A DNA stretch of 43,495 nt. Source: a virus. Each line of letters opens with the position of its first letter. Position 1 is the first letter of the stretch. Below are positions 1 through 43,495 of this stretch, piece by piece. The notes under the pieces are model-generated. The model ran no database searches. It saw nothing but the letters and a program-made list of their open reading frames with translations, and had not been told where the DNA came from. Made by a program: the position numbers and the translations under genes. The stretch lies in UHGV virus genome UHGV-0404561. The stretch is one strand, 5' to 3'.

Positions 1-115
1 CCCACATCTCGCCGACCTGTGAGCTGCCACACATCTTGCCGACCTGTGAGCTGCCACACATCTTGCCGACCTGTGAGCTGTCCCACATCTCGCCGACCTG
101 TGAGCTGCCCAACAT
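1..115. repeat. 27-bp tandem direct repeat, about 4 copies (cacatctYgccgacctgtgagctgYc), in frame within the 1..511 CDS
   Basis: Four contiguous near-identical 27-nt units are visible at the window start. The unit length is a multiple of 3, and the repeats encode the 9-aa protein repeat. Confidence 0.8.
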
Positions 116-511
116 CACGCGTACATCATTAAGCAACTTTTTCACTTCGCAGCGTTTAAGCCGGTAAAAACCAGTTTTCAGCTCTTCCAGCTTTTTGTCA
201 ACAAGTACATGCTTTCTCCACCAGTCGCATACTGATTCGCGGAACTCTTTCTCATGCGTTTCTTTGTCAAACCAATCAGGAATTATATCTTGATCAACGA
301 CAAACACCCATTTCTCCGGTTTTTCTGCCGGATCAATCCACCACTCATCATCTTTTTTCGGTACCAGCTCAGCCCGAACAAAGGTTTTTGATGCGCCTAT
401 GTAATCGTCCTTAATTCCGAGGCTTTCCAGCAAATCGGAATGGCTTTCATTATCTTCTGGCGCAATTACGATTTTGTTTTTCAAGATAATTCCGCTCTTA
501 AATCTACACAT
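1..511 (-). CDS. Hypothetical protein, 3' part runs off the window start. The C-terminus carries tandem 9-aa repeats (SSQVGEMWD / SSQVGKMCG); start at 511 with RBS GGAGGA
   Basis: Open minus-strand frame from the ATG at 509-511 through position 1. The SD TCCTCC (plus strand) lies at 518-523. This ORF is not in the supplied track because it leaves the window. Confidence 0.55.
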   Translation of the reverse strand, partial: MCRFKSGIILKNKIVIAPEDNESHSDLLESLGIKDDYIGASKTFVRAELVPKKDDEWWIDPAEKPEKWVFVVDQDIIPDWFDKETHEKEFRESVCDWWRKHVLVDKKLEELKTGFYRLKRCEVKKLLNDVRVMLGSSQVGEMWDSSQVGKMCGSSQVGKMCGSSQVGEMW

Positions 512-523
512 TGTTTTCCTCCG

Positions 524-760
524 TTAAATCACATTGTTTTTTTCGTCATCCGTTATCCCTGCGACCTTTAATATGGCCCACAGTTCCCGCAGCCGCATAG
601 AGCCGGGATCCTGCTTTCTCAGCCGGTACGTTGACAGTTTCATTCCCGCCATCTTAGCCATGCGATTATCGTCATAGCGCTTGCGGGATTTGATTACGTC
701 AAGGAGTATCTGGAGGTTTTCCCCTTTCTCCTCGGCGTATGTCTTTTTTTTAAGCGCCAT
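524..760 (-). CDS. Small hypothetical early protein (about 78 aa from the M at 760), possibly DNA-binding
   Basis: ORF 524..820. The internal ATG at 758-760 is preceded by a GGGGG RBS. The basic helical segment LSTYRLRKQDPGSMRLRELWAILKVAG looks HTH-like. No family recognised. Confidence 0.45.
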   Translation of the reverse strand: MALKKKTYAEEKGENLQILLDVIKSRKRYDDNRMAKMAGMKLSTYRLRKQDPGSMRLRELWAILKVAGITDDEKNNVI

Positions 761-900
761 ACTACCCCCGATCTTGTAAATGCTCTTGTGTTCAAAGCCA
801 GTGTAAAAACCCATAAGCATCCAATCTAACGCGTAGCACTGCTACCGTGTTGCGCCTACTTACGGGCCGGAGAGGCTCCTGCCAGCTCCGGGCATACAGC

Positions 901-949
901 TATTTACATTAACATTTTCATTTACATTAACATTTACATTTACATTAGG
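901..949. repeat. Iteron-like direct repeats of ATTTACATTAAC / ATTTACATT (4 copies) in a non-coding region
   Basis: Sequence tatttacattaacattttcatttacattaacatttacatttacattagg. Lies between the early-gene start at 820 and the plus-strand gene at 1052. Confidence 0.6.
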
Positions 950-963
950 TTTTCCGATTACAT

Positions 964-1020
964 AACCTATGGTTTTGCAATTTAAAAACCTATGGTTATT
1001 TACTCCTTATGTGATATAAT
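964..1020 (+). promoter_or_regulatory. Putative promoter region for the 1052 gene: two copies of the palindromic-arm site AACCTATGGTT (964-974 and 987-997) followed by an extended -10 TGATATAAT (about 1012-1020)
   Basis: AACC-TAT-GGTT has inverted arms and occurs twice 23 bp apart. TG-n-TATAAT lies about 35 bp upstream of the ATG at 1052. Confidence 0.4.
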
Positions 1021-1051
1021 TAATACAACATCACATTAAGAAAGGACTTTT

Positions 1052-1567
1052 ATGTACTTAGTAATATTTATTGCTGGAATTGCAATCATTAAATTTGTAT
1101 TGAATTTTTCTAGGCTCATTGAAACACTTATAATTTTCCGTATTTTTCAAAAACAGCCTAAAAACGTAGCGCAATATTGCCCATTTGCGACTGCTTTATT
1201 TAACGCAGCAGGAACCCAGCAAGTCATCATTTCTACCATACGCACTAATGGACTTTCCCAAGCCAGGCAAGATTACATTTCAAATTCCCTAGATAAAAAA
1301 GATTCTTATTTTGCGCTTGAAACTATTTTTCAAAAAACCATTGGTGTTTATAAATTTCGTATATCGCAAAGCGTAAATCCTTTTTACTGGTTATTTCTAC
1401 CAAAATACCTGCTCATGAGCTATTCAATAGAATTTCCATCTTTTATTGAAGCATTGCTCAATCTTGTCTATTGGTTTCTTGGCGTTGTCCTTTCATATTT
1501 TCTAGGAAAATATTTAGATCTTCATTATCAGGATCTTGTTTCGTACATACGCAGTATGCTGATATGA
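1052..1567 (+). CDS. Hypothetical protein, 171 aa, hydrophobic N- and C-terminal segments, very AT-rich gene
   Basis: Only plus-strand ORF in an otherwise minus-strand early region. There are no minus-strand ORFs of 60 aa or more between 820 and 1706. No recognisable family. Confidence 0.5.
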   Translation: MYLVIFIAGIAIIKFVLNFSRLIETLIIFRIFQKQPKNVAQYCPFATALFNAAGTQQVIISTIRTNGLSQARQDYISNSLDKKDSYFALETIFQKTIGVYKFRISQSVNPFYWLFLPKYLLMSYSIEFPSFIEALLNLVYWFLGVVLSYFLGKYLDLHYQDLVSYIRSMLI

Positions 1568-1705
1568 GAAATGCCCTTATCTCTTTTCTCTCTCGGCTAC
1601 TGCGGCAATTTCGCAGTCTTATCACTTCATCAAACATTGCTTGATAAAGTACTGCTTTAATCTTTTCTGGATCTGTATCTAAAAATACAGGCTCATTAAT
1701 CTGTC

Positions 1706-42149: not shown

Positions 42150-42167
42150 GCTCTCACCTACTTAATC

Positions 42168-42659
42168 CTACTTAATCTGGAGATTCTGCCTTGCGATCAG
42201 CCGTGCCCCTTCGATTTCTGTACCACTTTTTAAAAGTTTCTTAAGTGCTGTCTTATCCACTACCGGATCAGCGATCTTAATGCAGGATTGCGGCAAGGCG
42301 CTGACATCACCAGAAAACTCAACAGCTTCTGACTTTCTCCATGATGCTGATACGCGCTCTGTCTGGAACTTCTGCCCATTCAGCACCCCACTGACATACT
42401 TTTTAAGGCTTTCGGCTTTCGCTTCCGCTCTTGATTGTCGATCTGCAAAGGCCATTTTTTCTTTTTTCAGTGCCTCTGCATCCGACTGCAAATTTTTAAT
42501 CCATAAAAGGATATTTTCTATTTTCTCATTAAGATCGCACTGTAAGCTATCAATGGCCGCATACGCTTCTGTATCAACAATCTCTCCTGTCTCTGGATCT
42601 AAGGCATTTTCAAACGCATTCATAATTTCCGCGTTGATCTGGTATAAATTCACGTTCAC
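42168..42659 (-). CDS. Siphovirus Gp157-family protein
   Basis: MNVNLYQINAEIMNAFENALDPETGEIVD...IENILLWIKNLQSDAEALKKEKMAFADRQSRAE has the Gp157 hallmark pattern. Confidence 0.7.
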   Translation of the reverse strand: MNVNLYQINAEIMNAFENALDPETGEIVDTEAYAAIDSLQCDLNEKIENILLWIKNLQSDAEALKKEKMAFADRQSRAEAKAESLKKYVSGVLNGQKFQTERVSASWRKSEAVEFSGDVSALPQSCIKIADPVVDKTALKKLLKSGTEIEGARLIARQNLQIK

Positions 42660-42739
42660 ATTCCTCCATTACGTTCTGCCTGTTTTTTCTTTGTTTTGCC
42701 CTCTCTCTGCATTTACAGCACTCGTCTGCTTCGCAGCTA

Positions 42740-42913
42740 TCACACCGGCTGTTCATTTTCTTCACCATCAAGCAAAGCAATCATCACATCATCATCTACT
42801 ATAGTCCCCGATTTGGCTTTTAAATATGCCAGCGTTGCACTTACTCGTCCTTTTAATAAGACCAGCTCTGTAAACTCCTCATACGGGATTTCAATCTTTT
42901 TTTTCTCTTCCAT
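42740..42913 (-). CDS. Small hypothetical protein (57 aa), below the ORF-track cutoff
   Basis: Minus-strand translation MEEKKKIEIPYEEFTELVLLKGRVSATLAYLKAKSGTIVDDDVMIALLDGEENEQPV. Strong RBS GGAGGAATG. Confidence 0.45.
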   Translation of the reverse strand: MEEKKKIEIPYEEFTELVLLKGRVSATLAYLKAKSGTIVDDDVMIALLDGEENEQPV

Positions 42914-42964
42914 CTTGCATTCCTCCTGCGCACCTGCTAAACTGTAATTGTAATTTTTTTGTTA

Positions 42965-43005
42965 AAAGGCCGTTCAGCTCTGTCAAGCTTGCGGCCTTTT
43001 TCTTT
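42965..43005. terminator. GC-rich hairpin (AAGGCCG...CGGCCTT) flanked by T-runs on both strands, a candidate bidirectional terminator downstream of the 43100 gene
   Basis: aaaggccgttcagctctgtcaagcttgcggccttttt. This argues against the 90-aa ORF 42891..43163 being real. Confidence 0.5.
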
Positions 43006-43099
43006 GGCTTGGCATACCCAGTGTACTTACTGCCTCCGCATAACGCGGCCGCTCTGTTCGTGCCGTTTGCCCTCCTACTCATGATTTCCTCATTTTGGG

Positions 43100-43327
43100 T
43101 TAGATTGCATGTACCCACATAAATACCGCAAACACAGCGATCACAAATCCAAAACTTGCACATCCGACAACAAACACGGTTGTCAAAATGTCAAATGCCA
43201 TACCAAGCAAATCAAGCACCTTAAAAAACTTTTTCTCCTGTCTTGGAGCCTCTTCTTTTTCGCTTCTTACTGCCACATAACCAGGCATCTTGCCATTTTT
43301 CTCACTGACAAACGTAAGTCTTGCCAT
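43100..43327 (-). CDS. Small membrane protein with C-terminal TM helix (75 aa)
   Basis: LTTVFVVGCASFGFVIAVFAVFMWV hydrophobic tail. RBS present. Confidence 0.45.
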   Translation of the reverse strand: MARLTFVSEKNGKMPGYVAVRSEKEEAPRQEKKFFKVLDLLGMAFDILTTVFVVGCASFGFVIAVFAVFMWVHAI

Positions 43328-43388
43328 TTTTCTTTACCCCCTTATAGGCCACAGCAAGTTAGATACAAACCTCTTTTGGTTCTTCATT

Positions 43389-43495
43389 TTATTCCTCGTC
43401 TTTGCTTTTATGCACAACCATTTCAAATTTTCCACCATCTGGAATCATGATTTTTATAACCGGATAATTTTTAAAGTCTCGTGCAGTTGAGCTGC
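43389..43495 (-). CDS. 3' end of a CDS whose 5' part lies beyond the window end, proposed to be the same gene as 1..511 if the sequence is circular
   Basis: Open minus frame from the window end to stop TAA at 43389-43391 (...SSTARDFKNYPVIKIMIPDGGKFEMVVHKSKDEE*). Joining to position 1 is in frame. Confidence 0.5.
   Translation of the reverse strand, partial: SSTARDFKNYPVIKIMIPDGGKFEMVVHKSKDEE

Follow-up and report, generated by a model that had tools for sequence, protein, structure and literature searches.

The virus genome UHGV-0404561, which is 43,495 nucleotides (nt) long and is referred to in its full length as the window, starts and stops within an open reading frame (ORF) on the minus strand, at an array of 27-nt tandem repeats. 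This raises the question of whether the two ends are the termini of a genome fragment or the two sides of a cut through a circle and, in the latter case, whether the array at the cut has been assembled in full. We conclude, with a probability of roughly 0.9, that the window represents one genome unit in full, from a temperate tailed phage that infects a Lachnospiraceae host, and that it was assembled into a closed circle, which was cut inside the in-frame array. A phage contig that closes into a circle is otherwise routine, but the window can thereby be used as a whole genome, in which the gene content, the phage attachment site (attP) and the packaging type are interpretable.

The ends of the window join into a single gene

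The 5' part of the split gene (1..511, minus strand) starts with an ATG at position 511, behind a ribosome-binding sequence of the GGAGG type, and reads ...GAG ATG TGG G where it exits at position 1. It encodes an N-terminal domain of approximately 135 amino acids, followed by four nonapeptide units. The reverse complement of the window end opens with GC AGC TCA ACT GCA CGA GAC TTT and runs to a TAA at 43391-43389. This 3' part (43389..43495, minus strand) supplies the last two bases of a glycine codon, followed by SSTARDFKNYPVIKIMIPDGGKFEMVVHKSKDEE and the stop codon. Joining the ends computationally yielded one ORF of 205 amino acids with the stop codon ending at 43389, in which the 27-nt repeat phase is kept and the junction is translated as ...SSQVGEMW-G-SSTARDFKNY... 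Analysis with Tandem Repeats Finder placed the array at 3..120 (minus strand), with a period of 27 nt, 4.4 copies and 92% matches. The array encodes SSQVG[EK]M[WC][GD], and the assembly breakpoint is located at its distal edge. The partial fifth unit opens with GGCAGCTCA, as the other units do, and then departs into the C-terminal segment. The original prediction had described an ORF of about 205 amino acids from 511 to 43389, with a repeat phase continuous over the junction and a fifth unit opening like the previous four, and this is how the joined sequence reads.

By our own arithmetic, the probability of obtaining such a join by chance is approximately 0.06 for the reading frame (1/3 for an in-frame join, multiplied by about 0.19 for 35 open codons under uniform codon usage) and approximately 1.5e-5 for the 8-nt phase match at the junction. 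Judged from the sequence, the end join exceeds chance, and homologues with a contiguous gene settle the point. The predicted joined gene is real, and consists of the conserved N-terminal domain of about 135 amino acids, then four SSQVGxMxx units, and finally a C-terminal segment of about 35 amino acids that is likewise conserved. The N-terminal domain is identical to that of the homologues P0001, P0006 and P0010, and the C-terminal segment is identical in these three proteins and in L134.

The neighboring ORFs on both sides of the split gene have counterparts at the same place in related contigs. An ORF of 98 amino acids is located directly upstream (524..820, minus strand), and three JGI contigs have an identical protein beside the repeat gene. 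Directly downstream is an ORF of 75 amino acids (43100..43327, minus strand), and a 75-amino-acid ORF is found at the same position in the contigs L008, L009 and L010.

The split gene is contiguous in related sequences

Five independent related sequences carry the gene in one piece and away from their ends. The first of these, the metagenome contig OIWO01006410.1 (4,349 nt), was obtained from another data set and aligned to the rotated window in a single blastn high-scoring segment pair (HSP; 1-3014) that crosses the junction 43495|1 with 97.8% identity and 2 gaps. It contains the same four units and encodes a protein of 205 amino acids. In the part of the array shown, all differences from the window fell in variable codons, at nucleotide positions that vary between the units of related arrays. 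The second, contig k141_78112 from ENA (43,307 nt), is collinear with the circularized window on both sides of the junction with an identity of 94–98%, but has nine units rather than four. The third, scaffold_32506 (1,983 nt), also covered the junction in a single HSP, with 95.2% identity and one extra unit, and the fourth is the JGI contig Ga0495776_001401. The fifth is the protein XCD05138.1 of Dulem virus 35, identified by tblastn among the GenBank phages, which is contiguous and covers residues 1-205 with 60% identity (E 4e-89). Around the junction, DNA identities of 94–98% to the window were seen for OIWO01006410.1, k141_78112 and IMGVR_UViG_3300045988_044407 (hereafter 044407), whereas MT835516.1 was more distant.

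Dulem virus 35 (PP511522.1), an unclassified member of the Caudoviricetes from lemur faeces, is a circular record of 45,197 bp in which the repeat gene is internal and, as in the window, downstream of a Cro-like gene. Comparison by tblastn revealed the same circular order of modules in both genomes: terminase, portal, minor head, major head, tail, endolysin, integrase (inverted), CI-like gene (inverted), Cro-like gene, repeat gene and early genes, and then back to the terminase. The junction of the window falls where the genome of Dulem virus 35 is continuous; the latter record has been opened at the terminase and the window in the repeat gene. Amino-acid identities were 50–75% for the terminase, portal, minor head, major head and endolysin proteins. 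At the DNA level there was no detectable similarity except for the repeat gene, which is approximately 70% identical. The two phages also differ in that Dulem virus 35 has 9-10 repeat units compared to four in the window, has separate genes for TerS and TerL, which are fused in the window, and has another replication module, with an AAA protein, an SNF2-like ATPase and a helicase/primase. The phage is a temperate siphovirus-like gut phage and a distant relative of Dulem virus 35. A megablast search with positions 1-25000 of the window against the GenBank phages gave only short matches with 74–79% identity, showing that the window is not a deposited phage. A 36-mer from the N-terminal flank of the split gene had no match in IMG/VR.

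The length of the window is similar to that of its relatives (43,170, 43,288, 43,307 and 45,197 bp), and all phage modules are present, namely terminase, portal, head, tail, lysis, integrase, CI/Cro and recombination. The original prediction that the window represents one full circular genome unit is consequently well founded: relatives span the junction, the circle is collinear, the set of modules is full and the candidate attP is unsplit.

The array is a systematic assembly breakpoint

At least six related contigs also terminate inside the homologous array. Two of them are broken there at both ends. MT835516.1 (L002; 43,170 bp and listed as linear in GenBank) starts and stops within the array, and a direct join of its two ends produces a stop codon (GGC AAC T|AA), which implies that array sequence in this record is missing or out of phase. 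The ends of 044407 contain 3.2 and 11.4 units with no consistent overlap, and the total must thus be at least 14 units. Other contigs ending within the array are _021632 and _030347 from IMG/VR, Ga0495776_001275, and NODE-595 of ERZ1034842. We conclude that the array is a systematic assembly breakpoint, and that the cut in the window is neither arbitrary nor a physical end of the DNA.

A series of events that would account for these observations is that the phage genome was assembled as a closed circle and then written out linearly, with the cut falling in the 27-nt in-frame array inside an early gene. Arrays of this kind have no unambiguous path for De Bruijn or short-read assemblers, and contigs from this group of phages therefore end there again and again. 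A circle closed through the array is automatically joined both in frame and in repeat phase. Since the unit is 27 nt long, every join that preserves the phase is in frame, whatever the number of units. Hence, the in-frame and in-phase join places both ends within one array and supports closure of the circle, while units could still be missing.

This leads to the alternative that survives best, in which the topology is right and the junction is collapsed or chimeric: the array would have more than four units or represent a mixed population, and the circle would have been closed via a shared k-mer, maybe with flanks from two co-occurring strains. We consider this possible, if on the unlikely side. 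It would explain why so many contigs break in the array, and several related strains do share one metagenome. Near-identical proteins with 5, 9, 10, 12 and 15 units are known, and among the best 120 relatives the number of units ranged from 5 to 18, with none having four, although the ranking favors long arrays. In one homologue, P0049, there is a frameshift inside the array.

Several observations weigh against a faithful junction or, more broadly, against the closed circle. Alleles of 5–15 units and a close relative with at least 14 units make a collapsed array at the junction possible. No exact repeat at the junction exceeds 43 nt, and a true array of four units should be resolved at large k, so that the break mildly suggests an array that is longer or heterogeneous. 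OIWO01006410.1, the sole contig that corroborates four units, may itself have been collapsed likewise. Exact strings across the junction were without match, both as a 41-mer in IMG/VR and as a 33-mer in the metagenome contig collection; the only exact match elsewhere that crosses the junction was a 20-mer in common with L009. Finally, the two ends of the window have no exact direct repeat of at least 5 nt in common; one may have been trimmed earlier, and the usual sign of circularity at the contig level is thus either absent or trimmed.

On the other hand, OIWO01006410.1 has exactly four units in a gene that is internal, and a five-unit allele exists in P0015, which suggests that short arrays are real or at least reproducible. 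Taken together, four units is a plausible number for the window, and the true genome length may exceed 43,495 bp by a multiple of 27. In practice, long reads are needed before the array length at the junction can be relied upon, and the split gene has to be joined before annotation. The same breaks truncate proteins of this family in the databases, as exemplified by an entry in BFVD flagged 'Fragment' and by the frameshifted P0049.

The terminase suggests headful packaging of linear DNA

The terminase gene (30665..32290, minus strand) is a single ORF of 541 amino acids in which a TerS-like domain (PF03592, residues 3-128) is followed by a complete large terminase (PF04466 and PF17288). The fusion is also present in the distant MT835516.1, to which tblastn aligned 538 of the 541 amino acids in one piece. 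The best sequence matches of the TerL part in the PDB were the nuclease domain of SPP1 G2P (2wbn, E 1.4e-34) and the ATPase domain of Sf6 gp2 (4idh, 7e-9). The window also encodes an SPP1 gp7-like minor head protein; the fusion of the TerS-like domain to TerL sets it apart from SPP1 and Sf6.

SPP1 and Sf6 package their DNA by a headful mechanism, and headful (pac) genomes are circularly permuted and therefore assemble as circles. By analogy with these phages, and since the terminase is SPP1/Sf6-like, the DNA in the virion is probably a linear molecule, packaged by the headful, with circular permutation and terminal redundancy. The linear DNA would circularize after infection, and such a replicative, lysogeny-competent form is consistent with the intact attP candidate. 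The original prediction left the choice between a circular and a terminally redundant genome. The closed circle holds for the assembly, of which circularity is a property, while terminal redundancy is suggested for the virion DNA, which is rather linear given the SPP1-like terminase.

The repeat protein belongs to a family with variable unit number

The repeat protein is a member of a large family of early proteins from phages and prophages. A search of a large protein collection identified 1,287 relatives, most of them from metagenomes, and these include named prophage copies in Lacrimispora genomes. The closest relatives have an N-terminal domain that is identical or differs by 1-2 residues and a C-terminal segment that is identical or nearly so. 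They differ from the window protein mainly in the number of nonapeptide units. Across the family, the protein length changes in steps of nine amino acids, corresponding to 4-18 units overall. We analyzed 1,236 units, collected with a search pattern that fixed positions 2 and 7 and restricted position 4 to V or I. Positions 6 (E/K/V), 8 (W/R/L/C) and 9 (G/D/E) were hypervariable, with an entropy of 1.5–2.2 bits, compared to at most 0.9 bits for the remaining free positions. Within arrays, nucleotide differences were confined almost exclusively to codons 6, 8 and 9 and were nearly all non-synonymous. Between lineages, synonymous differences were observed at conserved residues in a small sample of DNA sequences. 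The synonymous changes at conserved residues, along with the variation confined to particular codons, suggest that the constraint acts on the protein and not on a DNA site.

No match to the joined repeat protein was found in Pfam, PHROGs, NCBIfam or PADLOC, and a profile search against the PDB gave only a low-complexity artefact. The structure of the five-unit homologue P0015 was predicted with AlphaFold2 from an alignment of 49 sequences. The model has an alpha/beta N-terminal domain (residues 1 to approximately 126) with predicted local distance difference test (pLDDT) scores of about 80–96, whereas the repeats score below 50. A cysteine at position 2 and a histidine at position 24 are near-invariant in the N-terminal domain of the family. 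Foldseek searches with the predicted fold retrieved nothing better than E = 1 from the PDB, and only the truncated family member mentioned above from BFVD.

Our best guess is that the repeat protein is an early protein, the repeat segment of which grows and shrinks by slippage or recombination. A more far-reaching and rather doubtful idea is that the array is a fast-evolving, contingency-like locus, in which the repeat surface engages a variable target in the host or its defence systems instead of being a passive linker. If this were true, the recurrent assembly breaks would hide a real length polymorphism at the population level.

A second alternative concerns the array itself, which could primarily be a DNA element, such as the iterons of an origin within an initiator gene, with the protein repeat as a by-product. 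The lambda origin, for example, is located within gene O. The head-to-tail arrangement of the repeats fits this idea, as do their location in an early gene a short way upstream of the recombination module and an A+T-rich stretch that was seen by eye after the array in the window, Dulem virus 35 and MT835516, even where the protein differs. In addition, family searches recognized no other replication initiator in the window. We nevertheless find this explanation improbable. The consensus units of distant relatives differ synonymously at third positions (TCA/TCC and GTC/GTA/GTG), and the variation within arrays is limited to the three codons described above and consists almost wholly of non-synonymous changes. 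Known sets of iterons vary far less in copy number than this array with its 4-18 units, a period of 27 bp would not correspond to a whole number of helical turns, and the protein matches neither an initiator family nor a fold in the PDB. Moreover, the repeat gene accompanies the immunity region beside replication modules that are different, with Erf and Gam in the window and a helicase/primase in Dulem virus 35, which argues against a lambda O-like initiator with an internal origin.

The candidate attP is intact and internal

Family searches identified a tyrosine integrase at 3536..4816 on the plus strand. Approximately 20–30 nt past its stop codon, on the minus strand, is the 3' fragment of a tRNA-Gly(CCC) gene (4838..4869), which comprises the T-arm and the 3' strand of the acceptor stem and reads ...CGGGTTCGATTCCCGTTATCTGCTC(TTGAAAA). 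No complete tRNA was called by ARAGORN at this position. The 21-mer at 4845-4865 recurs in at least 120 genome contigs as the 3' end of tRNA-Gly(CCC) genes, and most of the matches listed were from Lachnospiraceae, including Blautia, Acetatifactor and Schaedlerella. A 27-mer tRNA pattern that included two bases of the variable loop gave no match. At some of the genome loci, the sequence upstream of the 21-mer was not that of a tRNA, consistent with copies carried by prophages. An integrase with an adjoining tRNA 3' end is the usual anatomy of an attP that targets a tRNA gene, and the fragment is therefore a plausible candidate for the attP core, both intact and internal. That the attP is unsplit, as originally proposed, agrees with this candidate.

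The weakest alternative is that the window covers only a portion of a larger replicon, or is a prophage segment from a chromosome, with ends that fit by coincidence or stem from two paralogous repeat genes. This is very hard to sustain and was rejected: the N-terminal and C-terminal gene halves are exact complements and correspond to single contiguous genes in relatives, the length agrees with the 43.2–45.2 kb of the relatives, the gene complement is full with circular synteny, and the attP candidate lies undivided in the interior instead of at the ends.

A second tyrosine recombinase of 377 amino acids (33473-34606, minus strand; PF00589 1.7e-29) with a SAM-like N-terminal domain is encoded directly upstream of the packaging module, distant from the integrase and the attP candidate. 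It raises the question of whether it serves Xer-like dimer resolution or is a second integrase.

Gene content of the complete genome unit

The immunity region next to the split gene contains a Cro-like helix-turn-helix (HTH) gene on the early rightward side (1706..1918, minus strand), which is homologous to the 'repressor protein' of Dulem virus 35 (31074-31253). It is followed by a CI-like HTH repressor (2132-2518, plus strand) and an M78 peptidase of the ImmA/IrrE type (2530-2967, plus strand), both assigned by family matches. Between the divergent ORFs at 524-820 (minus strand) and 1052-1567 (plus strand) there are tandem repeats at 902-997, with ATTTAC hexamers in an 18-nt period followed by 2.2 copies of a 23-nt unit. 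These could be operators or an origin.

On the minus strand, family searches identified an endolysin with a VanY/M15 peptidase domain and choline-binding repeats (7634..8434). A tail protein of 952 amino acids (13486..16344, minus strand) is probably the tape measure protein; it was recognized by tblastn only, as a homologue of the 'minor tail protein' of Dulem virus 35. The major head protein (21089..22297), the SPP1 gp7-like minor head protein (28013-29230) and the portal (29238-30665), all on the minus strand, were supported both by family searches and by tblastn to Dulem virus 35. The early recombination module (39893..42659, minus strand), also identified by family searches, comprises a Gam-like Sipho_Gp157 protein, Erf, a NinB/Orf-like protein and a RusA-like protein.

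A segment of approximately 2.6 kb between the endolysin and the attP candidate (about 5027-7646) is absent from k141_78112, despite an identity of 94–98% to the window. It includes an ORF of 543 amino acids (5648-7279, minus strand) that combines three HTH_3 domains with an HNH nuclease region at the C-terminus, and for which PADLOC reported matches to HTH_VI, RmrA-like and control-protein. By its predicted content, the segment resembles a moron, or cargo of a defence type, carried at the end nearest to attP. The C-terminal domain of the major head protein (residues 321-401) matches the C-terminal domain of the S-layer protein SbsC (PF18316), and may be a surface-exposed decoration domain. Three adjoining tRNA genes, for Gln(TTG), Thr(TGT) and Met(CAT), are located in the middle of the head-morphogenesis block (23028-23250, minus strand). 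Finally, the early region encodes a Mom-like DNA-modification protein (38021-38509, minus strand; phrog_1384, 2e-34).

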